From sequence record OQ067374.1: a stretch of 64,000 bases of DNA; one strand, 5' to 3'. This DNA is from Escherichia phage a20. The first letter of the stretch is position 1. Each line of letters begins with the position of its first letter. The notes under the pieces were generated by a model. That model was not told the origin of the DNA. It saw only the letters and a program-made list of their open reading frames with translations, and did not search any database. Made by a program: the position numbers and the translations under genes. Of the stretch, positions 7,362-38,039 are shown piece after piece.

Positions 7362-7395
7362 AGCATTATACTCTGCTCCCGAGAGTTTGTAAACT
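7362..7395 (-). promoter_or_regulatory. early promoter, PeSL-like
   Basis: GTTTAC ... AGTATAATG with inverted repeat GGGAGC/GCTCCC; near-copy at 38006..38039. Confidence 0.55.
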
Positions 7396-7618
7396 ATTTT
7401 ACTAAAGATTCGATATACTCATGAAGAGCTTTAGTCGCTACTGCCCACTTGTTCTGATATTCATTTTTCAGATTAGCACGAGACTGAACTAACAAGCGGT
7501 CGTTAGTCGGGGGCAAAGATTCTAATCGTTGAATCTGACGGCCGTAAATCATAGCCGCCATTTCAGAGTCATAGATAAGTCCTTTAAGGTATTCATGCTG
7601 TTCTTTAGTCATTGGCAT
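7394..7618 (-). CDS. hypothetical protein
   Basis: 74-aa ORF. Confidence 0.5.
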   Translation of the reverse strand: MPMTKEQHEYLKGLIYDSEMAAMIYGRQIQRLESLPPTNDRLLVQSRANLKNEYQNKWAVATKALHEYIESLVK

Positions 7619-7899
7619 TTTTCCTCTTTTAAACCACTACGATAATAACATAACATAGTCTTCTGGTCATGTACATATCTTTTTACGTCGTTTAACCAGA
7701 TACGAAATTCTTGAGAGTCTTCAAATGGCATTCCAACCCACGGATTACCATCAATAACCTTTACTTGCCATTTCTGGTTATATTCAACAATAGATTCAGG
7801 CCACGGCGGATGTAAAGTTTCTTTAGGGCTTAAGGGCACATCCTGAGTACATCCAACTAGGAGACCAATAGATAATACAGCCACAGTTAATTTAATCAT
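7609..7899 (-). CDS. predicted lipoprotein
   Basis: signal peptide with LVGC lipobox. Confidence 0.55.
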   Translation of the reverse strand: MIKLTVAVLSIGLLVGCTQDVPLSPKETLHPPWPESIVEYNQKWQVKVIDGNPWVGMPFEDSQEFRIWLNDVKRYVHDQKTMLCYYRSGLKEEKCQ

Positions 7900-8252
7900 T
7901 CTGAGAGCTTCCTGAGGTCTTCTGCAAAGGAATCGAAGGACCTGTTGATTTGTTTTTCGACCAATCCTGGCTTACTTGCCACCACGTTCTTCTTCTTCGA
8001 ATCCTTACGGAGCTTTTCATTTTCGGCCTTAAGTTGGTCAACTAAAACACGGTTCTTATAAGTCATTTCTTCGATTGACTGATATTGAACCTTGAAGTCG
8101 TCTAATACTTTAGCATTGTTTTTAGCGGTCTCTTTGACAGAAGCTAATTCAGTATTCAACGAATCAACTTTGTTGTTTAAGACAACTATTGTTACCGTAG
8201 AAACTAGAGCAAAAGCTGCTACTATAACATAAATCGGATTTACTTTAAGCAT
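7896..8252 (-). CDS. predicted membrane-anchored coiled-coil protein
   Basis: N-terminal hydrophobic helix then charged heptad-like region. Confidence 0.5.
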   Translation of the reverse strand: MLKVNPIYVIVAAFALVSTVTIVVLNNKVDSLNTELASVKETAKNNAKVLDDFKVQYQSIEEMTYKNRVLVDQLKAENEKLRKDSKKKNVVASKPGLVEKQINRSFDSFAEDLRKLSE

Positions 8253-8740
8253 GTTTTAATAATCTCAATGATTTCATCTCGGGATAATCCATTGATAAGA
8301 ACGGTTTTCAAACCATCACACTGGATTTTGTACGATTCAAACAATACACACAACTCTTCTGCTGTATGATATGGGCTTGAGATTCCGAGACGGTTGAATT
8401 TGTCGGTAAGAGGGTCGCAAATAATATAGAATTTGATACCTGCGATATGTACGTTTGGTTGACTAATATTAATGAACACATTAGCGTCATATTTAGTCAA
8501 ATTGTTTTGAAGAAATTCTACCATAGCATTAACTGCTTCTGGCATCGCTTCGCGTTTCTCTTCAGCGTATCGGGTTGAATACTCTTTTTGTTTTACTTTC
8601 TTTTTAAGATTTTTGGCCAGTGTAACACGTAGGTCAGTAAGATAACCAACTGGACGTCCTTTCTTAAAGACCCGGATTCCGTCAGTTGTGTCTCCAAAAG
8701 CGTTTACGACCATATCGTTAGTAATCAATTGCATATTCAT
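8240..8740 (-). CDS. alc: Alc-like transcription terminator protein; start moved to ATG 8740
   Basis: 166 aa versus T4 Alc 167 aa; position between pseT and rnlA; strong SD GAGGAGAAAATT. Confidence 0.6.
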   Translation of the reverse strand: MNMQLITNDMVVNAFGDTTDGIRVFKKGRPVGYLTDLRVTLAKNLKKKVKQKEYSTRYAEEKREAMPEAVNAMVEFLQNNLTKYDANVFINISQPNVHIAGIKFYIICDPLTDKFNRLGISSPYHTAEELCVLFESYKIQCDGLKTVLINGLSRDEIIEIIKTCLK

Positions 8741-8766
8741 AATTTTCTCCTCGTGTTGTTGATAAA

Positions 8767-8800
8767 CCCATAGTATCACCATCCTTGGTGTTTGTAAACC
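8767..8800 (-). promoter_or_regulatory. early promoter, PeSL-like
   Basis: GTTTAC-N17-GATACTATG. Confidence 0.5.
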
Positions 8801-8801
8801 G

Positions 8802-9935
<1,134 letters not shown>

Positions 9936-9951
9936 TCAGTTAGTTTTTTTT

Positions 9952-9984
9952 AAATTGTACCACAATCCTTGTGGTATGTAAACT
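9952..9984 (-). promoter_or_regulatory. early promoter
   Basis: GTTTAC-N18-TACAAT with inverted repeat CCACAA/TTGTGG. Confidence 0.5.
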
Positions 9985-10393
9985 ACTTTTTCTTATGTTG
10001 GATATTCCAAGGCGGGTTGAACTTTTTGATAAAAAGTGGTTCTTCAAGGTCCATTGTTGCGATGGTCATTGAACCAAGTTCGTTGGTGACTGAAAGGTCA
10101 AAACATTGGCGGGCCCAGAATTCAACCTTTTTGCCTTGCATTAAGGCATCCAAAATCATAAGTGATTTTCTTGAATCTGAAGTCTGGTCTTTTCGATTTA
10201 TGGCTGTTCGATAATAGTTAATGCGTTTCTTTAAATTCTTGGTTTTACCAATATACACAAGTTCGTCATCTATAGCAATAGCGTATATGACATTTTTCTT
10301 ATTAGGGACATCAACTGTTTTAATTGTTGCATCTTCTAATAGCTCCAATTCTGTATATTTAATAAAGGAATATTCGGCGGCAATATCTTTCAT
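9983..10393 (-). CDS. denA: endonuclease II (GIY-YIG type)
   Basis: 136 aa; position between rnlA and nrdB as in T4. Confidence 0.8.
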   Translation of the reverse strand: MKDIAAEYSFIKYTELELLEDATIKTVDVPNKKNVIYAIAIDDELVYIGKTKNLKKRINYYRTAINRKDQTSDSRKSLMILDALMQGKKVEFWARQCFDLSVTNELGSMTIATMDLEEPLFIKKFNPPWNIQHKKK

Positions 10394-10401
10394 AATAAAG
10401 T

Positions 10402-10415
10402 GGGACCGAAGTCCC
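10402..10415 (-). other. UUCG-tetraloop hairpin 8 nt upstream of denA start
   Basis: gggaccgaagtccc between nrdB stop and denA ATG. Confidence 0.45.
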
Positions 10416-10419
10416 GTCC

Positions 10420-10922
10420 TTAGAAATATTTTTTGTATGAATTGATTACATTTTGGTCTACATCATTATCAATTTGTGCGACAAGATAAGAACTGATTTC
10501 AACTTCCTGAGGAGCGGCTTGAACTAAATCAGAGTTCAGATATTCACGAATCCAAGGATACGGATGCTTGGTCGGAGCATCAGTGATTGGGCATGGCAAA
10601 CCACACTGTTTCATACGAGACACAGTCAAGTAATCAACAAAAGCACACATACTCTGCGTATTGATACCTGGACATGTACCGTCTTTAAAGAGGTGTGCAG
10701 CCCATTCCTTCTCTTGACTATTTACTTCCATAAAAATGTCAACTGCTTCTTGTTCACATTCTTTAGCAATTTGAACCCACTCATCACCATCAGTACCAGA
10801 TTGAAGTTGACGGATAATGTACTGAGTACCCTTGAGGTGGAGTTGTTCGTCACGAGCAATGAACTTCATAATCTTTGCATTACCTTCCATAATTTCCATA
10901 TTTTTATGGAAGTTAAAGGTAC
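10420..10922 (-). CDS. nrdB: ribonucleotide reductase beta subunit, exon 2
   Basis: C-terminal NrdB sequence; junction reconstructs FYVSFA-C-TFNF matching E. coli FYVSFACSFAF; spliced CDS 392 aa. Confidence 0.75.
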
Positions 10923-12012
10923 CGTATGTTCGATTGAGCTCGCTAATTCTCAACCCGTTCTCTTATGAACTGCTGCATGTTACCATGCAGTCCAGACTAT
11001 ATCACAATCCCGGAGGGATTCTCCCCATTTCGAGTCGCTTGACCCTACGTCCGAAGACTAGTCGTTGAACCTTGTTTTGCAATTGTCGCCGTGCCATCGT
11101 TTATATGTTGATGGTGATAAATCTTTCTTATCACAATATGGACAATTCAATTGAATTCTATTTGGATTTAATTTACATCTGTCATTATGTTTTAGATAAA
11201 ATCCAGGACCTTTACCAATGTGACCACAAAAATCACATGTGATTTCTTTTTGTGCAGGATGGGTCCCGTTCTTAACCATTTCTAATGTTTTTGCTGATGT
11301 TCTTTTCTTATGGTCTTCTGATAAGAAATGATGTGAACCGTCATTTACCCGTTTTGATTGAGTTTCTGACTGCATTTTACCACCGCAAAATACATGAGTA
11401 CCTTCTTTTATAGCTGCAATATTGCGTTCTTTAACTTTTGCAATATGCTCAGCTTGTTGAAAATTATGTATACCTAATGCAACTCTATTTAAATTAGATT
11501 TACGCTGTATTTCACCATCTAAAAGATGAAATGTACCATTTTCTATCTTAGATTTAATAGAGGCAATATTTTTAGCTCGTACTTCAGGGATATTAAAAAT
11601 CTGGATTTCTCTAGATTTTGCGGCTTTAGAAGCTAATTCAGAAATTTCTTCAGGAGAATATTTCATTCTAAGCTTTATAGCATGACAAGCCTGGTAATCT
11701 TTTTGAGCTAAATGTATATCATAATGTTCCTGTATAGAAAGGCACATCAAATTATCTAAATCATTATTTTCACGGTTACCGTCTTTATGATGGATTTCGT
11801 ATGTTCTTCCATCAGAATCTTTAGGTATAGGTCCGTTAGCATCTATCCAAATTTTTCTATAGTTCAATTGTGCATCCTCTTAAAAGTATAATCATATTTA
11901 TATTATACTAATTAAAGGTGCAAGCAAAACCTTGGCTGCTAGTTTTCCTATAAAGGACTTTCCAGCAATTAAAGGAGTTTTCGATAAACGTTACCGTTTA
12001 AAGGCGCATTTT
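10923..12012 (-). mobile_element. group I intron in nrdB (1090 nt) carrying I-TevIII
   Basis: exon 1 ends on U, intron ends on G; boundaries set by frame restoration and conserved Cys. Confidence 0.7.
11058..11867 (-). CDS. I-TevIII: intron-encoded HNH homing endonuclease I-TevIII, full length
   Basis: 269 aa with Cys-rich zinc-finger C-terminus; TTG start after AAGAGGA SD; late-promoter-like TATAAATA at 11887..11894. Confidence 0.7.
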   Translation of the reverse strand: MNYRKIWIDANGPIPKDSDGRTYEIHHKDGNRENNDLDNLMCLSIQEHYDIHLAQKDYQACHAIKLRMKYSPEEISELASKAAKSREIQIFNIPEVRAKNIASIKSKIENGTFHLLDGEIQRKSNLNRVALGIHNFQQAEHIAKVKERNIAAIKEGTHVFCGGKMQSETQSKRVNDGSHHFLSEDHKKRTSAKTLEMVKNGTHPAQKEITCDFCGHIGKGPGFYLKHNDRCKLNPNRIQLNCPYCDKKDLSPSTYKRWHGDNCKTRFND

Positions 12013-12688
12013 ACGCAAAAGATACATAAAAACGAATAGCTTCTAAGGCATTAATAACGTGCAAACAGAGGTAAAGAGATTTCATTAAAGCACGTTTAGC
12101 TTCGGCTTCTTGTTTAATAGCTCGGTTTAAACGAAAGTCGGCATCAGGAGATTCTTTAGCTAATTCTACAAATTCTTTAGCATTTTCCCAATAACGAGTT
12201 TTAACCAGAACATCATCGTAATAGCGACCAATAGATTCAGCTCGTTTCATGATTGCTTCGTCTAATACAATCTCATCAAATACCTTAGATGGGTCCGTAT
12301 AAAGATTTCGCATAATATGAGTATACGAACGAGAGTGAATAGTTTCACTGAATGTCCATGTTGCAACCCACGTATCTAATGAAGGGTCGGAAATCAGTGC
12401 CATAAGTACCGCAGATGGGGCCCTGCCTTGGATAGAATCTAATAATGATTGATACTTAAGATTGTTTGTAAAGATGTCCTGTTGGAACTGAGGAAGCTTA
12501 TTGAACTGCGCAGAGTCCAACATCAAGTTTACCTCTTCTGGGCGCCAGAAAAACGACAATTGCTTTTCAATAAGTTCTTCAAAAACTTTATGTCGCTGAA
12601 TATCATAACGTGCGAGGCCAAGACCAGAACCAAAGAACATTGGTTCATTCAAAACATCGACTTGTTGTGTGTTAAAAACTGTACTCAT
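12013..12688 (-). CDS. nrdB: ribonucleotide reductase beta subunit, exon 1
   Basis: 225 codons of NrdB N-terminus ending ...RFYVSFA. Confidence 0.8.
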
Positions 12689-12727
12689 TATATTTTCTCA
12701 CTTAGTTATTAACTCATCCATGAGTAA

Positions 12728-12750
12728 ATTATAATCAAAAGTCTTAAAGC
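12728..12750 (-). promoter_or_regulatory. putative MotA-dependent middle promoter for nrdB
   Basis: minus strand GCTTTA-N11-TATAAT; Mot box overlaps nrdA stop. Confidence 0.4.
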
Positions 12751-15008
12751 TTACAAGCAGAACAATCTTCAGCTTTAGGTGTTTCTAATTCATAGTCATC
12801 TGTACCTGACCCATCACGAGTGTTATGATAGTAGAGGTTTTTTCCGCCAAAGTACCAGAAGTAAAGCAGATCGTCAAGCATTACTGACATTGGCACTTTA
12901 CCTTTCTCAAATACTGCAGGGTCATAGTAAGTATTAGCAGAAGCAGATTGGCACACCCATTTCAACATGATAGCAACTTGGGTCAAATAAGGTTTATTAC
13001 CTTTCTTAGCAAGTTTCCACGCATAATCGTAAAGACTCATGTTATGTTCGATATTAGGAACAACCTGACGGAAGTTGCCTTCTTTAGATTCTTTAATACT
13101 TACTGGACCACGTGGGGGCTCAATCCCGTTTGTAGAGTTTGATACTTGACTGCTTGACTCACAAGGCATGAGTGCAGACAACGTTGAGTTACGAATTCCA
13201 TGTTCTTTGAGTTCAGCTCGAAGTTCTTCCCAGTCACATACGTAGTTCGGGGCTGCGATTTGGTCAATCTTTTTATTGTACCAGTCGATAGGTAATTCGC
13301 CTCTAGACCATTTAGTGTCTGAATAATACTCGCAACATCCTTTTTCTTTGGCGAGTTTGATTGATGCTTTGATAAGGCCATATTGCAATCTCTCAAACAA
13401 TTCATGAGTCAAATCGTTAGCGTCTTCATATGAAGCAAAGTTAGAAGCTAACCATGCAGCATAGTTCGTAACACCAACACCAAGATTACGACGCTTTTTA
13501 GCTTTTAAAGCTTCTGGAACCGGATAATCCTGATAGTCTAACAGGTTATCAAGTGCACGTACTTGTACTTCAGCAAGTTCATTAATTTTATCTTGGTCTT
13601 GCCAATCAAATTTATCCAATACAAAAGCAGATAATGTGCATAAACCAATTTCAGCATCAGGACCATTCACATCATTAGTTGGAATAGCGATTTCACAACA
13701 TAAGTTACTCTGACGAATTGGAGCTTTTTCACGAATAAACGGAGTGTAGTTATTCGTGTTATCAACAAACTGTGGATAAATTCGAGCAGTACCAGAACGT
13801 TCAGTCATGAACAATTCAAAGAGTTCTAGTGCTTTGATTCTTTTCTTTCTGATTGTTGGGTCTTTTTCAGCTTTCTCATAAAGCTCACGGAATTTATCTT
13901 GATCTTCAAAGAATGAGTAATATAGTTCGCCTGACATTTCGTGAGGGCTAAATAAAGTAATATAATCATTTTTACCAAGGCGTTCCATCATAAGGTCATT
14001 AATCTGAATTCCGTAGTCCATATGTCGAATACGGTTTTCATCCACGCCTTTGTTATTTTTCAGAACTAATAGGTTCTCTACTTCTAAGTGCCACATCGGA
14101 TAATACGCTGTAGCAGCACCACCACGAATACCACCTTGAGAACAAGATTTTACTGCAGTTTGGAAATGTTTCCAGAATGGAATAACACCCGTATGTCGAA
14201 CTTCACCCATACCGATCTTAGAACCTTCTGCACGAAGCATACCAACGTTGATACCAATACCAGCTCGTTTAGAAATATATTCAATAATTGATGCTGAAGT
14301 TTTGTTAATAGATTTTAACGAATCACCGGCTTCAATAACTACACAACTAGAGAACTGGCGAGTCGGAGTACGAGCACCTGCCATAATTGGAGTAGGCAAT
14401 GAAACTTGATGAGTAGAAACGGCGTCATAAAAACGAATAATATGTTTCAAACGGTCATGAGTTTCGTCTTGGTGTAAGGCCATGCCAATAGCCATGATAG
14501 CAAACTGTGGAGTTTCATAAATCTTCCCGGTTGTTTTATCTTTAACTAGATATTTTTCTTTAAGCTGCATAGCACCAGCATAAGTCAGGTCAAAGTCTCG
14601 TTCATGTTTAATCTGTGAATCGAGATAAATGATTTCTTCTGCTGAATATTGAGACAACAGCTCAGGGTCATATTTGCCTTCATTAACACAATAAGAAATA
14701 TGGTCGATAAAAGCAGGCGGTTCAAACTGCCCATATACATCTTTACGAAGTGCAAACATTAGCCCTTTGGCGGCGACATACTGATAATCAGGTTCTTCGA
14801 CAGAAATCGAGTTAGCTGCAACTTTAATACAAATCTTCTGGATATCTTTGGTGCTCATCCCATCGACAAGATGGGTCTTAATTTCTTCGTACAATTCATA
14901 TGGGTCAATTTGTGTTCCTTCACATTGCCAAGTTAAGACTTGAATAATTTTCTGTGCATCAAAATTTTGGGATACACCTGAATTTTTCACTACTTTAAAA
15001 TTATACAT
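12744..15008 (-). CDS. nrdA: ribonucleotide reductase alpha subunit
   Basis: 754 aa, class Ia RNR large subunit; same length as T4 NrdA. Confidence 0.92.
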   Translation of the reverse strand: MYNFKVVKNSGVSQNFDAQKIIQVLTWQCEGTQIDPYELYEEIKTHLVDGMSTKDIQKICIKVAANSISVEEPDYQYVAAKGLMFALRKDVYGQFEPPAFIDHISYCVNEGKYDPELLSQYSAEEIIYLDSQIKHERDFDLTYAGAMQLKEKYLVKDKTTGKIYETPQFAIMAIGMALHQDETHDRLKHIIRFYDAVSTHQVSLPTPIMAGARTPTRQFSSCVVIEAGDSLKSINKTSASIIEYISKRAGIGINVGMLRAEGSKIGMGEVRHTGVIPFWKHFQTAVKSCSQGGIRGGAATAYYPMWHLEVENLLVLKNNKGVDENRIRHMDYGIQINDLMMERLGKNDYITLFSPHEMSGELYYSFFEDQDKFRELYEKAEKDPTIRKKRIKALELFELFMTERSGTARIYPQFVDNTNNYTPFIREKAPIRQSNLCCEIAIPTNDVNGPDAEIGLCTLSAFVLDKFDWQDQDKINELAEVQVRALDNLLDYQDYPVPEALKAKKRRNLGVGVTNYAAWLASNFASYEDANDLTHELFERLQYGLIKASIKLAKEKGCCEYYSDTKWSRGELPIDWYNKKIDQIAAPNYVCDWEELRAELKEHGIRNSTLSALMPCESSSQVSNSTNGIEPPRGPVSIKESKEGNFRQVVPNIEHNMSLYDYAWKLAKKGNKPYLTQVAIMLKWVCQSASANTYYDPAVFEKGKVPMSVMLDDLLYFWYFGGKNLYYHNTRDGSGTDDYELETPKAEDCSACKL

Positions 15009-15636: not shown

Positions 15637-15687
15637 AGTATAATCCACTTTGTAGTATCAACGGGATAGTATTTATCCCGTTAATTT

Positions 15688-15710
15688 ATTATACACTTTT
15701 AAACTGAAGC
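15688..15710 (-). promoter_or_regulatory. putative middle promoter upstream of HNH gene
   Basis: GCTTCA-N11-TATAAT on minus strand, followed by hairpin AACGGGATA...TATCCCGTT in the leader. Confidence 0.35.
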
Positions 15711-15711
15711 G

Positions 15712-15966: not shown

Positions 15967-16278
15967 TTATACCGCCATTTTAGCTTTGATAGTTGGATGA
16001 GATTCATAATTTTTAAGAACGAAATCAGAATGTGTCATCGTTCCAGTAACCCAGTCCATTTGGATTTTTGTAGGCCAATTCTCAAAATTACTAGGCCAAT
16101 TAATTTCAAGAGAACACAACTCTTTAGGTTCACGACGAAGAACTTCTTTGCATTGTTCTACATGATTGCTGTAGATATGCGTGTTGCCGCCTGAGAACAC
16201 TAAATCACCTGGGATAAGGTTACACATCTTCGCTACAATATGCGTCAAGGCAGCGTACGAGGCAATGTTGAACGGTAG
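15967..16278 (-). CDS. td: thymidylate synthase, exon 2
   Basis: begins LPFNIASYA...; joined with exon 1 gives 286 aa as in T4. Confidence 0.9.
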   Translation of the reverse strand, partial: LPFNIASYAALTHIVAKMCNLIPGDLVFSGGNTHIYSNHVEQCKEVLRREPKELCSLEINWPSNFENWPTKIQMDWVTGTMTHSDFVLKNYESHPTIKAKMAV

Positions 16279-17294
16279 CATTATGTTCAGATAAGGTCGT
16301 TAATCTTATCCCGGAATTATATCCAGCTGCATGTCACCATGCAGAGCAGACTATATCTCCAACTTGTTAAAGCAAGTTGTCTATCGTTTCGAGTCACTTG
16401 ACCCTACTCCCTAAAGGGATAGTCGTTAGGCATTTATGTAGAACCAATTCCACTTATCAGATTTTACACGGTAAGTAACTAATCCTGATGAAATTTCAAA
16501 ATGTCTAGCCGCATCGGCTGCACATTCAAAAATAATCCCATCGCATGAAATCTTTTTGATGTTAGCTGGCTTTTTGCCTTTCATCTTTTCAGATAGTTTA
16601 GTTTTAGTTTTTTCTGAATGTTTGTGATTAAAGAACGGGTTATTTTCACCTGAACGTTTTCGGCACTTTCCACAAGTATCGGCCGAAGATGGTATGCGAA
16701 CACCGCATTTACAAAACTTGTGGTTTTCTGGATTCCATCGGCCATTTTTACTTCCGTGTTTACCATAAAGAGCTTTCCGACCATCAGGACCAAGCTTAAG
16801 CATCTTAGCTTTAACAGTTTCAGCTCGTTTCTTAGCAATTTCTTCTTTTAATGGATGATTTGAAAGCACATCACCAAAAGACGCATCAGCAATATTATAT
16901 CCATTAATTTTAGAATTTAGCTCTTTAATCCAAAAATTTTCTCGTTCAATAATCAAATCTTTCTCATATGGAATTTCTTCCAGTACAGAGCATTCAAAAA
17001 CATTACCATGTTTATTAAAAGACCTTTGAAATTTTATAGAAGAGTGAACACCGTTTTCAAGGTCTTTAAAATGTCTCTTCCATCTTTTCTCAAAATCTTT
17101 AGCACTTCCAACATACACTTTACCGTTTAAAGTGTTTTTAATCTGATAAATTCCGCTTTTCATAAACACCTCTTTTTATATAGAAGTATTTATTAAAGGG
17201 TAGTCCTACAATTTAGCACGGGATTGTCTACTAGAGAGGTCCCCCGTTTAGATAGATTACAAGTATAAGTCACCTTATACCTAGGCCTAAATTA
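16279..17294 (-). mobile_element. group I intron in td (1016 nt) carrying I-TevI
   Basis: 5' end reads UAAUUUAGGCCUAGGUAUAAGGUGACUUAUACUUG..., 3' end ...CAUAAUG; matches T4 td intron length and remembered sequence. Confidence 0.9.
16426..17163 (-). CDS. I-TevI: intron-encoded GIY-YIG homing endonuclease I-TevI
   Basis: 245 aa from ATG 17163; MKSGIYQIKNTLNGKVYVGSAKDFEKRWKRH... near-identical to T4 I-TevI. Confidence 0.92.
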   Translation of the reverse strand: MKSGIYQIKNTLNGKVYVGSAKDFEKRWKRHFKDLENGVHSSIKFQRSFNKHGNVFECSVLEEIPYEKDLIIERENFWIKELNSKINGYNIADASFGDVLSNHPLKEEIAKKRAETVKAKMLKLGPDGRKALYGKHGSKNGRWNPENHKFCKCGVRIPSSADTCGKCRKRSGENNPFFNHKHSEKTKTKLSEKMKGKKPANIKKISCDGIIFECAADAARHFEISSGLVTYRVKSDKWNWFYINA

Positions 17295-18666
<1,372 letters not shown>

Positions 18667-18675
18667 TGTATTTTC

Positions 18676-18918
18676 TCAAACAGACTTTTTCACAATTTTC
18701 CAATCAGCTTTAAATTGGTCGACATCCGAGTGATAAATCCAGAATCCGGATGATATACCATCTTCGTAGAGTGGACATCCATCACATTCTTCGTTCCAAC
18801 CCATTTCACGTAAAGCTTCTTCGGCTTGTTCAAGGAGTTCAACATCTTTACCAACGATGTTGAAGTACCATTTACCTCTAACTTCAGAATCTTTGATACT
18901 CTGGCGTTGCAATCTCAT
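18676..18918 (-). CDS. hypothetical protein (frd.x); start moved to ATG 18918
   Basis: AAGGAG SD 8 nt upstream of ATG. Confidence 0.5.
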   Translation of the reverse strand: MRLQRQSIKDSEVRGKWYFNIVGKDVELLEQAEEALREMGWNEECDGCPLYEDGISSGFWIYHSDVDQFKADWKIVKKSV

Positions 18919-18948
18919 TTTATTCTCCTTCACTTTTATTTGATAGGG

Positions 18949-18982
18949 CTACTATAACATAACCCTATCTGATTGTACACTA
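18949..18982 (-). promoter_or_regulatory. early promoter, PeSL-like
   Basis: GTGTAC ... TTATAGTAG with inverted repeat GATAGGG/CCCTATC. Confidence 0.5.
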
Positions 18983-19397: not shown

Positions 19398-19432
19398 GTC
19401 TATACTAACACATCCAGGGAAGAAGTAAACAA
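19398..19432 (-). promoter_or_regulatory. early promoter, PeSL-like
   Basis: GTTTAC ... TAGTATAGAC. Confidence 0.5.
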
Positions 19433-19461
19433 CTTTTTCGGCAATTTACAGATACTCAAAA

Positions 19462-19479
19462 GGGAGACCGAAGTCTCCC
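19462..19479 (-). terminator. UUCG-tetraloop hairpin after gene 32
   Basis: gggagaccgaagtctccc followed by UUUUG on minus RNA. Confidence 0.55.
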
Positions 19480-27781: not shown

Positions 27782-27786
27782 ATTTA

Positions 27787-27804
27787 GGGAGACTTCGGTC
27801 TCCC
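27787..27804 (+). terminator. intrinsic terminator hairpin after gene 35
   Basis: GGGAGAC-UUCG-GUCUCCC followed by AUUUUU. Confidence 0.6.
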
Positions 27805-31500: not shown

Positions 31501-31643
31501 ATACCCATTCGGTAGGTATTGGTGCTCATACGCATACTGTTGCAATTGGTTCCCATGGACATACAATAACTGTAAATGCCACAGGAAATACAGAAAACAC
31601 AGTTAAAAACGTTGCTTTTAACTATATCGTTCGTTTAGCATAA
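28518..31643 (+). CDS. 37: long tail fibre distal subunit gp37 (receptor-binding)
   Basis: 1041 aa; C-terminal His-box repeats ([16 protein letters not shown]...) of the T4-type tip. Confidence 0.9.
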
Positions 31644-31673
31644 GGAGAAGGGACTTCTGTCCCTTTTTATAAT
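31644..31673 (+). promoter_or_regulatory. gene 38 translation initiation region with hairpin between SD and AUG
   Basis: GGAG ... GGGACUUCUGUCCC ... UUUUUAUAAU-AUG; resembles the split-SD arrangement described for T4 gene 38. Confidence 0.5.
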
Positions 31674-32225: not shown

Positions 32226-32234
32226 GGAGGTATT

Positions 32235-32894: not shown

Positions 32895-33167
32895 TTAGTT
32901 GTTAGAATACATCGCTAAATGACGATAAATATTTTCAAAACCTTCATTGAATTCACTAATCAGTGTTTTCTTTTCTTCGGCAGTTAAATTTGTAATTAGT
33001 TTTCTAAAAGAATTCTGATTTAGCTGCCGACCATCTTTTTTAATTCCAATCTCATTCAAGAATCCGATGAAACTTGCTCGGTCTTCAACAATATCTTCCC
33101 TAGAGAATTTAATCAAAATAGAAGCAATAGTAATAATTTCACGTACGATTTCAATGTCTTTATTCAT
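32895..33167 (-). CDS. asiA: anti-sigma70 protein AsiA
   Basis: 90 aa; MNKDIEIVREIITIASILIKFSREDIVE... matches T4 AsiA. Confidence 0.92.
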   Translation of the reverse strand: MNKDIEIVREIITIASILIKFSREDIVEDRASFIGFLNEIGIKKDGRQLNQNSFRKLITNLTAEEKKTLISEFNEGFENIYRHLAMYSNN

Positions 33168-33213
33168 AACGTTTTATTCATTCCACTTAGTTGATATGGA
33201 TATAGTACCATTA

Positions 33214-33375
33214 TCAGTGTTGATTGTAAACGGCTTTTTCTACGCTTTTAACGTAATCAATGTAGTCTTCCTGTTCGTACGAGTTTAAGGCTAAGAACGA
33301 GGCTAATAGTTCATTATAGACTAAAGCCTCACGCTCACGTTCGGCCTCTACTACGTTCTGAAGATTATGACTCAT
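33214..33375 (-). CDS. hypothetical small protein; start uncertain
   Basis: track ORF 33214..33429 overlaps the upstream gene; internal ATG 33375 reduces overlap. Confidence 0.35.
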   Translation of the reverse strand: MSHNLQNVVEAEREREALVYNELLASFLALNSYEQEDYIDYVKSVEKAVYNQH

Positions 33376-33751
33376 ATTGTTCCTTATAACTATCAATGTA
33401 ATCCTGTATGTCAAAGAATGACATTTCATATTCTAGGACATTAAGAGCCCGTTCTTCAGTATAGTCAGAACCAAAGACGATAGTGATTTCACCAGGCTTC
33501 ATATGATTGAAATCGACACTAAAAGGAATACGAGAACATACTTCGTCTGCCATATCTACGATAACACTACGACACACTTCTCGGTTAACCTGATAAAGCT
33601 CTGCAAGTTCTTCACATCGAATAACAAGTTCAGTGGCAGGATTTTCTTTGATTTTAGTAAGCATAGTCTTTACCCTTATGTTTTTGTTTACGTTTAGATT
33701 GAAGTTCTGATTTCTTTTTGTCCTTATGGACGGAAGCCTTATTGAAATCAT
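33365..33751 (-). CDS. hypothetical acidic protein (position of T4 arn)
   Basis: 128-aa ORF, ATG coupled to upstream stop; Arn identity is positional guess only. Confidence 0.45.
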   Translation of the reverse strand: MISIRLPSIRTKRNQNFNLNVNKNIRVKTMLTKIKENPATELVIRCEELAELYQVNREVCRSVIVDMADEVCSRIPFSVDFNHMKPGEITIVFGSDYTEERALNVLEYEMSFFDIQDYIDSYKEQYES

Positions 33752-33966
33752 GTTTTGCTACAAGATTGTTCATAATGCTTTATAACCTCGTTTAAACATT
33801 TACTAGTGAAAGAAAACTTTTTAGCCACAGAACATTCGATAATGTGCTCTTTCAAATCTTTAGAGTCAGTATAACCCATCTCAGTAATAAAGTGGCGAAT
33901 TAAAGCTTTATTCTTATCATTAACAGAATTAAAATAATCTGCTTTAGAATCAATTATTCTCATCAT
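33748..33966 (-). CDS. hypothetical protein (arn.x)
   Basis: 72-aa ORF. Confidence 0.5.
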   Translation of the reverse strand: MMRIIDSKADYFNSVNDKNKALIRHFITEMGYTDSKDLKEHIIECSVAKKFSFTSKCLNEVIKHYEQSCSKT

Positions 33967-34231
33967 CTAATTTCCTTAATTGATATTGCAACGAGCTAAT
34001 AATTTCTTCATTCATTTTAATATACATGTCGCGCAAGAAAGGTTTTAACCCATCACGAATAATTGCTAACGTATCACCTTTACATAAATTAACCAAATAA
34101 GGATGGTCTAAAGCATCCCAACCAGGCTGATTAGCATACATACCATAATTTTCTTCCATCATAGCATTCAGGCGTTTGATATGATTAATGTGGGCTTCAA
34201 TAGCATCAATCTGGAGTTGTTTAAGATTCAT
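33950..34231 (-). CDS. hypothetical protein (arn.x)
   Basis: 93-aa ORF. Confidence 0.5.
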   Translation of the reverse strand: MNLKQLQIDAIEAHINHIKRLNAMMEENYGMYANQPGWDALDHPYLVNLCKGDTLAIIRDGLKPFLRDMYIKMNEEIISSLQYQLRKLDDENN

Positions 34232-34692
34232 TAGTAAAGGTCCTCAGAGTAAAGTTCTTTTTCATTACCGCCACGTTCAATACGTACCTGTCCAGCATAC
34301 GTTGCAATAATCATTGCTTCTTCACGAGTCCAGTAATTAGAGTATTGATCAATAAAGCCTTGGTCGTCGCCACAAACTTGCTGCGAGACTAATTGAGGAC
34401 CAACTATATCAAGTACTTCAGCCATATCTTTAGAGTAATGACGAGCACCTGGAATAATAAGAGTTCGTCCATCTTTTAATTTAAAACGGTTGGCTGCACA
34501 GACAATTCGTCGTTGGTACTTTTGGTTTTCATCCCAATACAGAGTCTGCCAACATATTTCAGGAACTTCATCTAAAACATTTTGTTCTGTATATTCACCG
34601 CCGTAAGAAGCTAATTTAGCAGCCAGACTTTCCGGAGTCTCACGAGATAAAGCTTTATCTAACAGAGCTAAACGTTCTTTAAAAGTTTTCAT
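34231..34692 (-). CDS. hypothetical protein (arn.x)
   Basis: 153-aa ORF. Confidence 0.5.
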
Positions 34693-35018
34693 TTAAACCA
34701 TCCTTTAATACGTTGCCAAATAGATTTTTGTGCTTGTTTATTTACACCAAACGAACGAATAACCGGTTGTGACTGCTGATATTCTTTATAATCTTCTTTA
34801 TAGATTTCGTAAGCTGCATCAACAAATGAACTGATCGCTGCCATGTAGTTTTTACGAAGGCCAAATGGCGCGTCATTATTTTCACGAATAACCGTATATT
34901 GGCCTGCTTTAATCTTTACAATTGTCCCTAAATAAGCCCCGTGGTACCAAATATCCCATCCTTCCTGAGTAGGTTCTGCACATTTACGAAGTTCGTTAAT
35001 AATATTCAGCTTATTCAT
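34689..35018 (-). CDS. hypothetical protein (arn.x)
   Basis: 109-aa ORF. Confidence 0.5.
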
Positions 35019-35028
35019 TATGTATTCC

Positions 35029-35661
35029 TCACAGTACGTTAGTTACAAGGGTAATGATTTCTTTGGACACATTAGGGAAGTCAATGTAAGTATATTTACC
35101 ACCGATCTTAATCTTAACATCATTTTCAAGAGAAGTAAACAGCTTTGATTCAGTTTCTGACATGTTGTATGCAAAGATTCTAAGAGCGCCATCTCGACGA
35201 ATTTCGATCTGACGAATACCTAGAACTCGTTTTGCAAATCGAACTTCCAAGTTACTACGGTTTTCACCAATTTCTTTAACTTCAACTTTATCTTTAATAT
35301 TTTCAAAAACAAAGTTTGCTAGTTCATGCATTTCAGGAGTAACTCCACGTGCTTTTCTAGTGTTACGTTTCTGAAGAAGTTCTGGAGCATTTTCTTGGGC
35401 AAAGAGGTCTGCAGCTTTTTGGATAATATCCATTGCTTCGCCTGTTGCTATAAGTCCATCACCGGATTTTTCGACTAAACCTTTCTTAATCAATACACCA
35501 ATGTTAGAGTTAACAACCGATGCATTGTATTCCGCTTCTAGAGCTTCACGGACATTGGCAGCAGTGGTGAAGTTGTTCTTAATGATATAAACCATTATTG
35601 CAGCAGTTTTTTCATTCAGAGCGTTTTCAGAAGCTTTGATGATGTAAGTAACTTTAGACAT
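35029..35661 (-). CDS. motA: MotA middle-transcription activator
   Basis: 210 aa; matches T4 MotA. Confidence 0.88.
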   Translation of the reverse strand: MSKVTYIIKASENALNEKTAAIMVYIIKNNFTTAANVREALEAEYNASVVNSNIGVLIKKGLVEKSGDGLIATGEAMDIIQKAADLFAQENAPELLQKRNTRKARGVTPEMHELANFVFENIKDKVEVKEIGENRSNLEVRFAKRVLGIRQIEIRRDGALRIFAYNMSETESKLFTSLENDVKIKIGGKYTYIDFPNVSKEIITLVTNVL

Positions 35662-35695
35662 TTTATTTCTCCAATTTGGTTGTTTTGTTTTGATA

Positions 35696-35731
35696 GGTCT
35701 ATAATATCATGTTTGAAGCATATGTAAACTG
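35696..35731 (-). promoter_or_regulatory. early promoter for motA, PeSL-like
   Basis: GTTTAC ... GATATTATAGAC. Confidence 0.55.
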
Positions 35732-35756
35732 TTTTGTGAGAAAAAAATGCACAAAA

Positions 35757-35772
35757 GGGAGCCGAAGCTCCC
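35757..35772 (-). terminator. UUCG-tetraloop hairpin followed by U-rich tract downstream of gene 52
   Basis: gggagccgaagctccc then UUUUGUGCAUUUUUUU on minus RNA. Confidence 0.5.
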
Positions 35773-35848
35773 TAATCATGTTTGTCTAACCAATACAGCC
35801 AAATCACTAGTACAGCTATTGCACCGAGAAATCCTAAGGCTAGGGCAC

Positions 35849-37174
35849 TCAAAGTGCCTCCAAGTCTTTAGTGTACTCTGTCACAACATCAGTAGACTTC
35901 CAATACTCATTTTCTTCTTTCTTAGCTTTAGCTTCTTCTGCTAGTTTACGTGCTTCGTCGGAAGTGATATGGAAGATGTTAAGACCTACCAGTTTATCGA
36001 CATGTTCTTTATACATTTCGATTTGTGCTAGCTCTTCAGTCAAAGCTTTACGAGTCTTGTCCTGAATCACAATTTCACCACTGATAACTTTTTTGATGAA
36101 GTGTGCCTTAGCAAAAGCAAGTTTAAATGCTTTTTCAGATTCAAGGATTTTGTTGTCAATACGTTTCTGAACGTAAGTCTTACGGACTTCAACAAAATCT
36201 TTGATTAAGTCCACTACGTTATCGTAGACAGCTAATTTACCCTTTTCATTAATCACTGTGATGTTTTGTGAACGACGTTCGATGAGACTAAAATCTTTCA
36301 TGATTTTTTCATGACGTAGCTCTTCATCATCAGGAAGCGAGTACTCTTTACGGAACTTCACCTTAAACCCAAAGCCGTGTTCACCACAATCATCTTCCCA
36401 AGAGATTAGACCTTTGTCTTCCAACGGGTCAAGAACCTTACTCACATACGTTTCACGGTCGAATTTATATGGGATTTCAGTTATCTGCATTTGAGTGCGA
36501 GATGTGAACTTATATGTTCCGTGAATCTCATAACGCCCATCAACTTCATGTACTTCGCCACGGAATTCCGGGAATTCAACTTTTGGCTTAGTGACATTTT
36601 TACCTTGAAGAGCTTGTAATACAGCCTTTTTTACCGATTTAAAACTATGAGGCAGAATATTTGTTGCGTAACCGGTTGCAATACCAGAAACACCATTCAA
36701 AAGAACTGTCGGAATAATAGGAAGATAGAATTTTGGTGGAATGTGTTCTTTATCTTCATGAGCTGGAGCATATTCAGTATCTTTATATACGTTATAGAAA
36801 TTTTTACTTACACGAGCAAAAATATAACGAGATGCTGCAGCTTTTTGGACTGTTCTAGAACCAAAGTTGCCCTGGCCATCTAACAGTGGATAGTTGTTGT
36901 TCCATGTGTTAGCCATTAATGCACCTGCATCTTGTGCAGAAGATTCACCGTGGTGATAACCTAAATCTGCAACACCGCCTGCAATTGACGCAAGTTTATG
37001 AAATTTTTCTTTATTACCACGAGCCAAATCTAATGCACGATGAACCACAAAACGTTGAACCGGTTTAAATCCATCAATCATGTTTGGGATTGCACGGTTT
37101 TCAACGGTGTACATCGCATATGCTAAGGCTTCGTTATCAATAATACTTTTTAGATTACGAGAATTCAATTGCAT
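35849..37174 (-). CDS. 52: DNA topoisomerase II medium subunit gp52
   Basis: 441 aa; GyrA-like N-terminal domain matching T4 gp52. Confidence 0.92.
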   Translation of the reverse strand: MQLNSRNLKSIIDNEALAYAMYTVENRAIPNMIDGFKPVQRFVVHRALDLARGNKEKFHKLASIAGGVADLGYHHGESSAQDAGALMANTWNNNYPLLDGQGNFGSRTVQKAAASRYIFARVSKNFYNVYKDTEYAPAHEDKEHIPPKFYLPIIPTVLLNGVSGIATGYATNILPHSFKSVKKAVLQALQGKNVTKPKVEFPEFRGEVHEVDGRYEIHGTYKFTSRTQMQITEIPYKFDRETYVSKVLDPLEDKGLISWEDDCGEHGFGFKVKFRKEYSLPDDEELRHEKIMKDFSLIERRSQNITVINEKGKLAVYDNVVDLIKDFVEVRKTYVQKRIDNKILESEKAFKLAFAKAHFIKKVISGEIVIQDKTRKALTEELAQIEMYKEHVDKLVGLNIFHITSDEARKLAEEAKAKKEENEYWKSTDVVTEYTKDLEAL

Positions 37175-37178
37175 ATTT

Positions 37179-37319
37179 TCACCATATTAATGAACGAATA
37201 ATCATTATAACATCTGAAATGAAAAGCACTACTTGGATTAGTCCAAACATCACACCATAGTACAGAACCGTAAGCAACAACAAGAGCCCGAAGGCTCCTG
37301 CTAAGATTTTCTTAATCAT
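37179..37319 (-). CDS. small hydrophobic protein, 46 aa, missed by ORF track
   Basis: ATG ORF MIKKILAGAFGLLLLLTVLYYGV...; T4 has small genes ac/stp here. Confidence 0.35.
   Translation of the reverse strand: MIKKILAGAFGLLLLLTVLYYGVMFGLIQVVLFISDVIMIIRSLIW
37204..37230 (-). promoter_or_regulatory. putative middle promoter for gene 52
   Basis: minus strand TGCTTTTCA-N12-TATAAT. Confidence 0.4.
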
Positions 37320-37465
37320 TACTCGCCTTTTAATACGTTAAGAAGCGCTAAGACCGCTAAGGTACCTTGTGATACGGCCTGTTGAAATACTGTTGTTTCG
37401 CCTGTAACTAAAGTGCTAACGAATAAAAACGACCAACACAGCAATGCAATAATCCATGCTACCAT
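37319..37465 (-). CDS. small hydrophobic protein, 48 aa, missed by ORF track (Ac-like by position)
   Basis: ATG ORF MVAWIIALLCWSFLFVSTLVTGE...; stop overlaps next start. Confidence 0.35.
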   Translation of the reverse strand: MVAWIIALLCWSFLFVSTLVTGETTVFQQAVSQGTLAVLALLNVLKGE

Positions 37466-37517
37466 TTTAATTACCTCAAAAATAAATTAAAGGCCTATTA
37501 AGCTAGGCCTATATAAA

Positions 37518-37964
37518 TTAGTAACTCTGCAGAATGAATTTGAAATTATCTGCCAGAAGACGGTTCATTTCAGTGAGTGTTTGATATTCTGATGTATGGT
37601 TGCGAGTGAATGCCAGAGCCAATTGTCCTTTACCGTAACCAGTGGTCAGTGGTTTCATGTTCTTAGCTGCAACAAAGATTACATCATATTCAATATTGTT
37701 AGTGCCCATAGTACGGGCTAGTTGCGAACGGCCTTGACGAATGTGAGAAAGAATTGCATCCAACCCTTGTTTAGAACGTTGACGTCCTACAAAGAATCGT
37801 GCTGCAACTTGACGCCAGTCAGATGAACCTTTAACAAAGAAGTAAAAACCTTCACGAGAACGAAACTCTTTAGAAACTTCAGAACCGTATTCGCCATTAC
37901 GAACTACTGCAACAACTTCACCGCCAACTGCCAGAAGGTCTTTACGAGTTAAATATTTGGACAT
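37518..37964 (-). CDS. ndd: Ndd nucleoid-disruption protein
   Basis: 148 aa; RQRSKQG...SHIRQ...SQLART...KPLTTG...[13 protein letters not shown] motifs match T4 Ndd. Confidence 0.88.
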
Positions 37965-38005
37965 GCTAATTTCCTCAATTGATTAATGTTTTTGTAATCC
38001 ATGAG

Positions 38006-38039
38006 AGCATTATACTCTGCTCTCAAGAGTTTGTACAAT
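38006..38039 (-). promoter_or_regulatory. early promoter, PeSL-like
   Basis: TTGTAC ... AGTATAATG; near-copy of promoter at 7362..7395. Confidence 0.55.

Follow-up and report, generated by a model that had tools for sequence, protein, structure and literature searches.

The early promoters of phage T4 share the consensus GTTTAC ... TGn TAtAAT and an UP element (review PMC2988021). In phage RB69, 57 early promoters were predicted, of which 45 precede T4 orthologs and 13 novel open reading frames (ORFs); the promoter logo has C-rich positions at -3 to -1, and inverted repeats are unmentioned (Nolan et al., 2006, PMC1524935). Cassettes known as promoter-early stem-loops (PeSLs) were described in RB49/phi1 (Arbiol et al., 2010, PMC2839356) and also for PST/T4 and nt-1/KVP40 (Comeau et al., 2014, PMC4122927). 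[quoted passage not shown] A hairpin hiding the ribosome-binding site with a promoter inside it is known from T4 e, soc, 49 and I-TevI and from mobE of Aeh1; the long read-through RNA folds and hides the Shine-Dalgarno (SD) sequence, while the internally started RNA is open (review PMC3014915). Here we describe a dispersed family of promoters, part of them with inverted repeats around the -10, in 64,000 nt of Escherichia phage a20 (OQ067374.1), the whole of which is called the window below. The family consists of known kinds of element, namely T4 early promoters and PeSL cassettes, and is not a new kind. We lean towards the explanation that some of these early promoters carry a sense-strand hairpin which would be specific to read-through RNA and would insulate gene boundaries.

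The early-promoter family of phage a20

By its sequence, the window is part of an RB69-like Mosigvirus, a T4-type phage of the Tevenvirinae. A megablast search with positions 7000-15000 returned 948 phage records, the top one being Escherichia phage NRG-P0074 (99.3% identity, genus Mosigvirus). The gene order is T4-like (gene 30.7, then nrd, td, 32, tail-fibre genes 34-38, asiA, motA, rII, 39, dda, mod, 56, 61 and 41). The minus strand carries all early genes, and the plus strand the late tail-fibre block (22.8-32.9 kb).

The pattern GTTTAC-N17/18-TAnnnT had 22 matches in the window, all on the minus strand, while 1.96 +/- 1.29 were expected and none of 100 shuffles reached 22. When GTGTAC, TTGTAC and ATGTAC were also allowed, 31 minus-strand and seven plus-strand matches were obtained. 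Removal of three intragenic or overlapping minus-strand matches left a working set of 28 promoters, six of them added by the one-base -35 variants and one (at 2080) doubtful. A generic sigma-70 scan did not exceed shuffled sequence (83 vs 67, 57 vs 65 and 63 vs 58). The signal is confined to GTTTAC, the T4 early-promoter consensus; the family members themselves scored 9-11 of 12 in that scan.

GTTTAC lies at -36 to -31, corresponding to a TTTACA hexamer, and is followed by a spacer of 17 +/-1 nt and a TAnnnT -10. Anchored on the -10, the family consensus reads AAAA..GTTTACAA....TATGnTATTAT, including an A-rich UP-like upstream element; a TG extension before the -10 was flagged in many members, and a conserved aGaCCTATCAA box surrounds the predicted start site 3' of the -10. 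Twenty-six of the 28 promoters are located directly 5' of a minus-strand ORF, and 22 of these ORFs are T4 homologs (tblastn against T4 1-85 kb and 120-169 kb). An SD and an ATG follow 23-50 nt past the -10 in 25 promoters. The intergenic gaps are very short, and the stop codon of the upstream gene is often within 10 nt of the -35. Syntenic T4 counterparts exist, including the annotated Pe133295. By consensus and position the family is thus identified as the T4-type sigma-70 early promoters of Mosigvirus. A first-pass annotation of the window had proposed about 28 minus-strand promoters of this type, and both the number and the assignment held after filtering; the four examples that it cited were all found where it had placed them.

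Inverted repeats at the -10 and the Shine-Dalgarno sequence

The spacer of each promoter was paired with the 30 nt downstream in the same promoter and, as a control that preserves both composition and family consensus, with those of every other member. Over the 28 promoters, the mean duplex energy was -9.1 kcal/mol for matched arms and -6.4 kcal/mol for swapped arms, and none of 20000 permutations reached the observed value. Ten promoters had energies of -10 kcal/mol or below (3.0 expected from swapped arms) and eight of -12 kcal/mol or below (1.2 expected). Single-strand folding gave z-scores from -2.5 to -6.2 for nine promoters, while four repeat-free promoters had z-scores of at least +0.28. 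For about 18 promoters, the pairing around the -10 was within the chance range of swapped arms.

The inverted repeats are therefore real, being more common than chance would produce, and only their frequency had been overstated: they had been described for most members, while a perfect repeat of at least 7 bp was detected in eight of the 28 promoters, or in 9-10 if G.U pairs are counted. The description as 7-9 bp repeats bracketing the -10 applies to seven promoters (6-11 bp); the repeats at 61475-61519 and 48777-48821 reach the SD instead. The copies at 7362..7395 and 38006..38039, which had been called nearly identical, are clearly paralogous and share an exact run of 18 nt, but they agree at 43 of 49 positions (88%) and at 75% over 60 nt.

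Two layouts were distinguished (Table 1). In P1212, P5239, P7365, P18951, P38009, P38270 and P38782, the stem of 6-11 bp hugs the -10, the 5' arm ending 3-5 nt before it and the 3' arm beginning 0-2 nt after it; in -10 elements of the TATAGT type, the final bases become part of the stem. As drawn, these stems hold the -10 in a loop of 8-13 nt, and folding extends some of them into the -10, leaving loops of 4-8 nt. In P61497 and P48799, the early part of the spacer is paired with the SD region in a stem of 13-14 bp with a loop of 17-19 nt, and weak versions of this layout are found in P61930 and P54842.

Position of the hairpins relative to the predicted start site

By T4 convention, transcription is predicted to start about 7 nt after the -10, here at the A of ctAtcaa, and the RB69 logo puts the start behind the C-rich -3 to -1 positions (Nolan et al., 2006, PMC1524935). 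The hairpin arms occupy sites that are left unread by the polymerase, namely the spacer from -25 to -16 and the stretch past the -10. Since the predicted start site is 3' of the 5' arm, that arm would be outside the promoter's own transcript, and the hairpin could form only in RNA reading through from upstream.

Partition-function folding showed what this would mean for the SD in the two long stems. The probability that the SD is unpaired was 0.00 in the read-through RNA of both P48799 and P61497, compared with 0.69 and 0.75, respectively, in the RNA of the own start. The arrangement that hides a ribosome-binding site, with the 3' arm over the SD and the 5' arm upstream of the start, was found in P61497 and P48799 and weakly in P61930 and P54842. 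Masking of the ribosome-binding site as a general role was considered and rejected: it was computed only for P61497 and P48799, and an apparent effect in P18951 did not come from its -10 stem. Spacers of the window and T4 promoters contain anti-SD 4-mers in 15 of 64 cases (4.0 expected). In P61497, the stop codon of the upstream gene adjoins the -35, so that a terminating ribosome would reach the 5' arm, and the stem could couple the translation of both genes.

Covariation and strand of the hairpins

P7365 belongs to a subfamily of the form TACAAACTCT-N7-AGAGTATAAT, for which a DNA pattern search found 31 loci; with P7365, P38009 and T4 Pe7186, the set comprised 16 distinct sequences, which came from five or more genomic contexts. 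In the 7-bp helix of the subfamily, 97.3% of the cells were paired, compared with 87.9% after shuffling (0/500 reached the observed value) and 36-51% in slid registers. Four of the seven pairs change on both sides, and one of them occurs as G-C seven times, as C-G six times and as U-A once. In three distant T4-like contigs (L040, L043 and L044), the spacer/SD stems differ at three to four compensated positions. A single-protein ortholog collection from IMG/VR contributed few Mosigvirus loci for three of the four queries.

Internal mismatches were G.T in 24 cases and A.C in four among 83 helices from 297 non-redundant promoter variants (binomial p=0.0002, which is indicative only since the sequences are related). 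This asymmetry fits a hairpin on the sense strand, either in RNA or in the non-template DNA strand, and not a symmetric duplex signal. The mismatches point to a sense-strand hairpin that is probably RNA.

The same feature in T4 and distant relatives

The 26 promoters of T4 (NC_000866) analyzed in the same way had means of -10.3 kcal/mol for matched and -6.7 kcal/mol for swapped arms, with 0/5000 permutations reaching the observed value, and nine of them had -12 kcal/mol or below (1.5 expected). T4 Pe129890 and Pe133295 carry the stems of their window counterparts P1212 and P5239. Stems of the spacer/SD layout are numerous in T4, for example before motB.2, ndd.4, rnlA, alt.-3, denV and regB, and stems hugging the -10 were found before dmd, ipI and motB. 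In a sample of 40 non-redundant promoters, gathered from diverse T4-like contigs via a conserved downstream protein, eight had -15 kcal/mol or below (0.8 expected), and these include Aeromonas-type relatives with quite different arms.

Two observations on individual T4 promoters were made beside this comparison. Near-identical promoters with a spacer/ribosome-binding-site stem, GTCCCTCGTGTT ... AACATGAGGAC, precede rnlA and alt.-3 at T4 136307 and 123064 (16307 and 3064 of T4 L058); 13 kb apart, they form another dispersed paralogous cassette pair like that at 7365 and 38009 of the window. For T4 133300-133313 (L058 13300-13313; window 5239-5250), RefSeq notes 'inverted complement of previously reported sequence; corrects the early promoter Pe133295'. 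These 14 bp are the loop, including the -10, between the repeat arms, so that the loop was flipped in the earlier sequence. The flip could be an old sequencing artefact at the hairpin or a real arm-to-arm inversion switching the promoter off.

Gene gain and loss at promoter cassettes

The window was compared with eight Mosigvirus genomes for insertions and deletions (indels). The clearest case concerns ORF 61526-61900. Its locus is covered to at least 80% by 131 of 162 Mosigvirus records, and about 20 records cover about 50%, the ORF being absent. In LF82-1, which lacks the ORF, the boundaries are at the -35 and at the -10/+1 box; its single promoter resembles P61930 on the -35 side and P61497 on the -10/+1 side, with a spacer of its own and no long stem. 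348Ecol098PP and JQD51 also lack the ORF, and their junction is within both SD sequences (aagagga|gaacaaaATG). The two distinct junction types indicate that the ORF was gained or lost at least twice through the flanking cassettes. LF82-1 further carries an extra gene of 72 codons before motA, between two direct copies of the P35701 cassette extending from the -35 through ATGTCTAAA; the duplicated cassette has no repeat.

In two more events, one junction was located within 40 nt of a cassette. In HY126 and 308Ecol101PP, an extra gene of 204 bp is inserted about 20 nt 5' of the P60925 -35, with its junction at a microhomology outside the promoter. Overall, four of 16 endpoints of early-region indels fell in cassettes, which make up about 3.3% of the sequence (0.5 expected; Poisson p=0.002, a value inflated by selection for intergenic junctions).

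At least four early-region events and all left-arm events were unrelated to promoters. A 265-aa ORF at 44265-45062 (minus strand), 46% identical to part of T4 mobB (an HNH homing endonuclease) and located between a 366-aa non-T4 gene and gene 39, is missing from four of five compared relatives as a clean indel of 795 bp. In HY126, a modA-like gene has lost an internal part, and extra small ORFs occur between soc and 56, neither change being related to promoters. The same holds for the nrd-td region, where every difference involves intron or homing-endonuclease genes. Positions 18437-18686 (ORF 18415-18666, no T4 homolog) could not be aligned to NRG-P0074, which is otherwise 97-99% identical and has a different small ORF of the same size instead; from the alignment, one allele has been replaced by another here, and neither boundary has a promoter. 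The ndd-denB cluster, with three repeat-bearing promoters at 38.0-38.8 kb, was expected to be polymorphic and proved to be conserved in 152 of 161 Mosigvirus records; for the same region of T4, PeSL-mediated exchange was proposed by Comeau et al. (PMC4122927).

Among the 95 minus-strand genes, 19 had no tblastn match in T4 1-85 kb and 120-169 kb. Promoters were not enriched before these non-T4 genes (4/19 vs 22/76, p=0.58), in agreement with RB69, where 45 of 57 early promoters precede T4 orthologs (Nolan et al., 2006, PMC1524935). Repeat-bearing promoters were more frequent before non-T4 genes (4/10 vs 0/16, p=0.014; with P56310 included, p=0.047), and on these small numbers the repeat-bearing subset may cluster with non-T4 genes.

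These exchanges did not need the repeat: it is missing from the duplicated motA cassette, and the junctions are at the -35, the -10/+1 box, the SD and the start codon. Judged by the junctions, it is the cassettes, not the repeats, that have a role in recombination. Cassettes of 60-90 bp comprising promoter, leader, SD and start codon are similar enough to each other for crossovers that add or remove single genes. The first-pass annotation had proposed gene shuffling by PeSLs and a clustering of the promoters with non-T4 genes, to be followed up by comparing breakpoints with related genomes. Shuffling stands for ORF 61526-61900 and the LF82-1 motA insertion, which are bounded by cassettes, while most other indels are intragenic or due to homing endonucleases. 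The clustering was not found for the family as a whole and may hold only for the repeat-bearing subset.

Interpretation of the hairpins

In the explanation that we favor, the hairpin would mark and insulate the read-through RNA at a gene boundary. In the spacer/SD layout it would hide the ribosome-binding site, and the downstream gene would then be translated mainly from the RNA of its own promoter, or when ribosomes ending the upstream gene open the stem. A hairpin hugging the -10 would most likely attenuate upstream transcripts or set a stable 3' end, as proposed for PeSL stem-loops. This offers a simple and testable model for the mutual insulation of tightly packed early genes.

Several points weigh against it. 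The start site and the read-through RNA are extrapolated from T4 biology, and 18 of the 28 promoters do without a hairpin. The seven stems hugging the -10 showed no consistent SD masking when folded, and none of them has a U-tract or was called by a terminator scan of the minus strand, their 3' arms being followed by ATCAA(A/C), so that the function proposed for them is tentative. The G.T asymmetry fits a sense RNA and a non-template DNA hairpin alike and was counted on related sequences. Among close Mosigvirus relatives, arms and free positions were equally conserved (6% vs 4% variable), and changes at paired positions comprised five wobble-preserving, one compensatory and four disruptive ones; purifying selection on the arms is undetectable at this distance, and the covariation evidence comes from deeper comparisons. 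T4-type replication makes templated quasi-palindrome mutations, which could yield paired changes without selection. Two expectations were examined and abandoned. For hairpins as substitutes for an upstream terminator, no significant inverse association was found (Fisher p=0.375 in the window and 1.0 in T4). For hairpins as marks of promoters whose next upstream promoter is close, the window medians were suggestive (451 vs 740 nt), but the trend was not supported with T4 included (p=0.36).

Alternatively, all hairpins could be terminators or attenuators of the upstream gene that overlap the promoter for lack of intergenic room, which is the view of the PeSL authors and which we consider unlikely for the set as a whole. 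The hairpins do come right after the upstream stop codon and are partly 5' of the next start site, an RB49 stem-loop was as effective as rrnB T1 on lacZ (PMC2839356), and classical terminator hairpins occur directly 5' of other family promoters in the phage a20 genome. However, the 3' arms continue in the RNA as AUCAA(A/C), with no U-tract, and were left uncalled by the scan; the hairpins bear no inverse relation to separate upstream terminators; and two stems here, as well as many in T4, lie exactly on the SD, a position that termination leaves unexplained.

It is improbable that the stem-loops are DNA recombination signals, extruded or cut (for example by endonuclease VII) and serving cassette mobility; this view takes the PeSL shuffling model in its strong form, as the first-pass annotation had done. 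Such signals would suit the cassette-bounded gain and loss of ORF 61526-61900, the motA cassette duplication of LF82-1, the enrichment of repeat-bearing promoters before non-T4 genes, and the RB49 crossover within a loop together with the mini-circles (PMC2839356). Yet the junctions mapped here are outside the stems, the duplicated motA cassette is free of a repeat (z +0.28), and an excess of G.T over A.C of 24 to 4 is unexpected for a symmetric duplex or cruciform. Loops of 10-19 nt are unfavourable to cruciform extrusion. The densest repeat cluster, at 38.0-38.8 kb, is also the one conserved in nearly all Mosigvirus records, and most indels relative to other phages are intragenic or due to homing endonucleases.

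An action on promoter DNA, either as a dyad-symmetric operator bound by a protein dimer of phage or host (for example in early-promoter shut-off) or as a non-template hairpin presenting the -10 to sigma-70, appears very improbable. In its favor, the center of symmetry is almost identical in most stems that hug the -10, falling on the upstream edge of this element, the way in which T4 early promoters are shut off is described as incompletely understood (PMC3014915), and the G.T asymmetry would also suit a hairpin of the non-template strand. However, the arm sequences vary freely from promoter to promoter and show covariation, so that a common sequence-specific binder is excluded; two thirds of the promoters have no repeat; the shared center follows from arms packed as close as the fixed TG and -10 permit; and the spacer/SD stems with loops of 17-30 nt would be left unexplained.

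That chance produced the repeats, or that they follow from conserved consensus positions in the spacer and leader, is hardly credible for the nine strong cases, for which it was tested and rejected: a shared CCTATCAA box and some paralogous spacers mean that part of the complementarity is inherited, but matched arms beat consensus-keeping swaps (0/20000), compensatory changes occur, and T4 and distant relatives show the same excess, so that chance is still the best account only of the about 18 promoters within the swapped-arm range.

On a wider scale, it is conceivable, though we regard it as doubtful, that insulating hairpins serve throughout the T4 superfamily as a general RNA device for distinguishing transcripts by their start. 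About a third of the early genes in T4, Mosigvirus and Aeromonas-type relatives would then have a structure confined to read-through RNA, which would hide the ribosome-binding site or mark the gene boundary for attenuation or processing. If so, the output of each gene would be tied to its own promoter despite overlapping polycistronic RNAs, the principle of e, soc, 49 and I-TevI, known from a few late-promoter cases, would apply to the early programme as well, and the arrival of new genes together with such promoters would be explained. Annotators of Mosigvirus genomes can use the motif to recognize early transcription units and the cassettes to predict the sites at which relatives gain or lose single genes.

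Individual promoters and other features of the window

The promoters of the working set and related features are listed in Table 1. A classical terminator with a UUCG tetraloop is located directly 5' of five or six family promoters. The terminator hairpin GGAGACTTCGGTCTCC has four exact copies in the window (0.02 expected). Its three minus-strand copies are located directly 5' of family promoters (P1656, P19402 and P61930) as terminator-promoter composites, and the fourth (27788-27803, plus strand) follows gene 35 in the late block. Small stems of 3-6 bp within the spacer were found in four promoters, three of which contain the 10-mer CCAAGGATGG at an equal spacer position (8779-8788, 49775-49784 and 50333-50342); a copy with one mismatch is at 138-147. 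The 10-mer can fold into a CCA/UGG or CACCA/UGGUG stem with an AGGA loop. Its count within one mismatch was not significant in the window (four vs 2.0 expected), yet every copy is in a promoter spacer. Seven or eight of the 28 promoters had no stem-loop of any sort.

Table 1. Early promoters of the phage a20 window, their repeats and related features (all on the minus strand; z, folding z-score; arms given as 5' arm / 3' arm).
Feature	Position	Downstream gene	Repeat or other structure	z	Remarks
P1212	1199..1240 (-)	gene 30.7 homolog	11-bp repeat hugging -10: TTGGTACAGGT 1223-1233 / ACCTGTACCAA 1199-1209; 13-nt loop	-4.58	-35 1235-1240, -10 1212-1217; RNA fold -19.7 kcal/mol; arms kept in T4 Pe129890 and JS98-like phages, one C>T change giving a G.U pair
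P5239	5229..5268 (-)	cd.2 homolog	9-bp stem hugging -10: TGGTAGAGT 5250-5258 / ACTCTACCA 5229-5237; 12-nt loop	-3.83	ortholog T4 Pe133295 has the same stem; in relatives, wobble keeps pairing or one pair is lost
P7365	7359..7394 (-)	non-T4 ORF 7037-7336	6-bp stem hugging -10: GGGAGC 7375-7380 / GCTCCC 7359-7364; 10-nt loop	-2.46	TACAAACTCT...AGAGTATAAT subfamily
P18951	18942..18980 (-)	frd.1 homolog	9-bp stem, one G.U, hugging -10: GATAGGGTT 18961-18969 / AGCCCTATC 18942-18950	-4.93	NRG-P0074: T>C makes G.U a G-C; FL18: two disruptive changes
P38009	38002..38038 (-)	ndd	7-bp stem hugging -10: TGAGAGC 38019-38025 / GCTCTCA 38002-38008	-3.64	paralog of P7365, stem differences compensatory
P38270	38261..38299 (-)	ndd.1 homolog	9-bp stem, two G.U: GGTAGGATT 38280-38288 / AGTCCTATC 38261-38269	-3.34	LF82-1: G>A converts U.G pair to U-A
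P38782	38775..38811 (-)	non-T4 ORF 38492-38755	8-bp stem: TAGGACTA 38791-38798 / TAGTCCTA 38775-38782	-2.62	last T of -10 is first base of 3' arm
P48799	48777..48827 (-)	ORF 48248-48772 (motB.2-like)	13-bp spacer/SD stem: TTCTCCTCTGGTT 48809-48821 / AACCAGAGGAGAA 48777-48789; 19-nt loop with -10 and predicted start site	-6.24	fold -24 kcal/mol
P61497	61475..61525 (-)	non-T4 ORF 61153-61470	14-bp spacer/SD stem: TTCTCCAGTAGTTG 61506-61519 / CAACTACTGGAGAA 61475-61488; 17-nt loop	-5.43	O157 typing phage 3: compensatory A-U to G-C change in stem
P61930	61907..61982 (-)		weak 7-bp spacer/SD repeat: TTCCTCT 61944-61950 / AGAGGAA 61907-61913; 30-nt loop	-1.25 (not significant)	-35 61954-61959, -10 61930-61935; terminator hairpin GGAGACTTCGGTCTCC 61967-61982 just 5'
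P35701	35701..35773 (-)	motA	no repeat at -10	+0.28	terminator hairpin 35756-35773 upstream
P1656	1656-1684, cassette 1656..1737 (-)		no significant -10 repeat		terminator hairpin GGAGACTTCGGTCTCC 1722-1737 upstream
P19402	19402-19430, cassette 19402..19478 (-)				terminator hairpin GGAGACTTCGGTCTCC 19463-19478 upstream; paralog (70-75% identity) of P48799 and P61497, lacking their long stem
P56310	56310-56339, cassette 56310..56375 (-)		no -10 repeat	+0.67	terminator hairpin 56354-56375 upstream
P8770	8770..8799 (-)	alc	small spacer hairpin CACCA 8786-8790 / TGGTG 8777-8781		hairpin contains CCAAGGATGG
P9954	9954..9983 (-)	rnlA	spacer hairpin CCACAA 9969-9974 / TTGTGG 9960-9965		similar spacer in T4 Pe167057
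P49763	49763..49792 (-)		spacer holds CCAAGGATGG		TTGTAC -35
P50321	50321..50350 (-)		spacer holds CCAAGGATGG		
P48219	48219..48248 (-)		only 5-bp GGTCT/AGACC pairing at -10, within chance		ATGTAC -35
P60185	60185..60214 (-)	sp	window copy weakened by G>T		relatives: 6-bp GGACTA/TAGTCC stem at -10
P60925	60925..60954 (-)		no repeat	+1.66	
P54842	54842..54870 (-)		only 5-bp CCTCC/GGAGG spacer-SD pairing		
P54204	54204..54233 (-)		no repeat		GTGTAC -35
P53464	53464..53492 (-)	srd	no repeat		GTGTAC -35
P33202	33202..33231 (-)	asiA	no repeat		T4 counterpart Pe161182
P22699	22699..22728 (-)	rnh	no repeat		T4 counterpart Pe150734
P7647	7647..7676 (-)	pseT.1 homolog	no repeat		ATGTAC -35
Doubtful match	2080..2108 (-)				GTGTAC...TACTAT; no A-rich upstream region, no nearby start codon
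Extra member	125..155 (-)				GTGTAC, 19-nt spacer with CCAAGGACGG, TATAAT; missed by the fixed-spacer pattern (spacer one base longer)
ORF 61526-61900	61526-61900 (-)				124 aa, no T4 homolog; between P61930 and P61497

Some features outside the promoter family were also recorded. nrdB and td are each interrupted by an intron-endonuclease ORF (10420-12688 and 15967-17843), I-TevIII-like with a 97% and I-TevI-like with an 89% match to T4, and the presence of these insertions varies among relatives. An Rfam search of the whole window at gathering thresholds gave zero matches, group I introns included. In place of cd.1 there is a 330-aa gene without T4 match (3860-4852, minus strand), whose product is annotated in related phages as phospho-2-dehydro-3-deoxyheptonate aldolase (DAHP synthase); the gene appears to be metabolic and genus-typical and has no family promoter of its own.

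Comparison with known systems

The early promoters of the window agree with those of T4 and RB69 in consensus, strand and position before early-gene orthologs, P5239 corresponding to Pe133295 and P1212 to Pe129890. The published descriptions of T4 and RB69 promoters present a linear motif without inverted repeats (PMC2988021, PMC1524935). Our literature search, which did not extend to the T4 genome review PMC150520, found no paper beyond the PeSL papers on these repeats in RB69-type phages or T4 early promoters.

An intrinsic terminator resembles the hairpins in being a G+C-containing RNA stem-loop after a stop codon. It differs from them in its U-tract and in its loop, which in the scan definition has 3-8 nt and in the hairpins has 8-19 nt as drawn, although folding shortens some to 4-8 nt. 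Real terminators exist separately in the phage a20 genome as hairpins with a UUCG tetraloop, for example GGAGACTTCGGTCTCC with TTT behind it.

Among known mechanisms, that of T4 e, soc, 49 and I-TevI comes nearest to the spacer/SD stems. P61497 and P48799 share its layout, with the 5' arm upstream of the start of the internal promoter, and the effect on translation is a computed one. In the T4 e type, the internal promoter is late (gp55-dependent) and the hairpin delays expression to late infection, whereas here the promoter is early and two early transcripts would be contrasted. The seven stems hugging the -10 are unlike the T4 e type in that the SD is uncovered.

The cassettes also resemble PeSLs. 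As in these, an A/T-rich region, a strong sigma-70 early promoter, a stem-loop, an SD and a start codon are combined in many copies dispersed through the early regions, and some indel junctions between close relatives fall within the cassettes. SD and start codon are 3' of the promoter, and upstream stop codons in the A/T-rich 5' end abut the -35 region. The stem-loops comprise 9-10 at the -10 or SD, five or six upstream terminators and four spacer-only stems of 3-6 bp. Both junctions were inside cassettes in two events, one of them with two junction types. Since seven or eight promoters have no stem-loop, the PeSL label fits only part of the family, and the preference of PeSLs for variable genes was not found for the family as a whole (4/19 vs 22/76). 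The PeSL match proposed in the initial annotation was thus borne out for composition, stem-loop positions, dispersal and some cassette-bounded indels, but not for the stem-free promoters or for a variable-gene preference.

The PeSL papers covered phages other than Mosigvirus and RB69, and in the window about a third of the promoters carry a -10 stem. For T4/PST, a legend in PMC4122927 places the stems 'just upstream' of the promoter, while many T4 stems identified here wrap the -10 or pair with the SD; the overlap of the two sets is uncertain. PeSL stem-loops, usually treated as terminators or recombination sites, compare like sense-strand RNA structures, part of which sit on ribosome-binding sites. 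To the PeSL picture, the present analysis adds covariation of the arms, strand asymmetry of the mismatches and computed masking of the SD.

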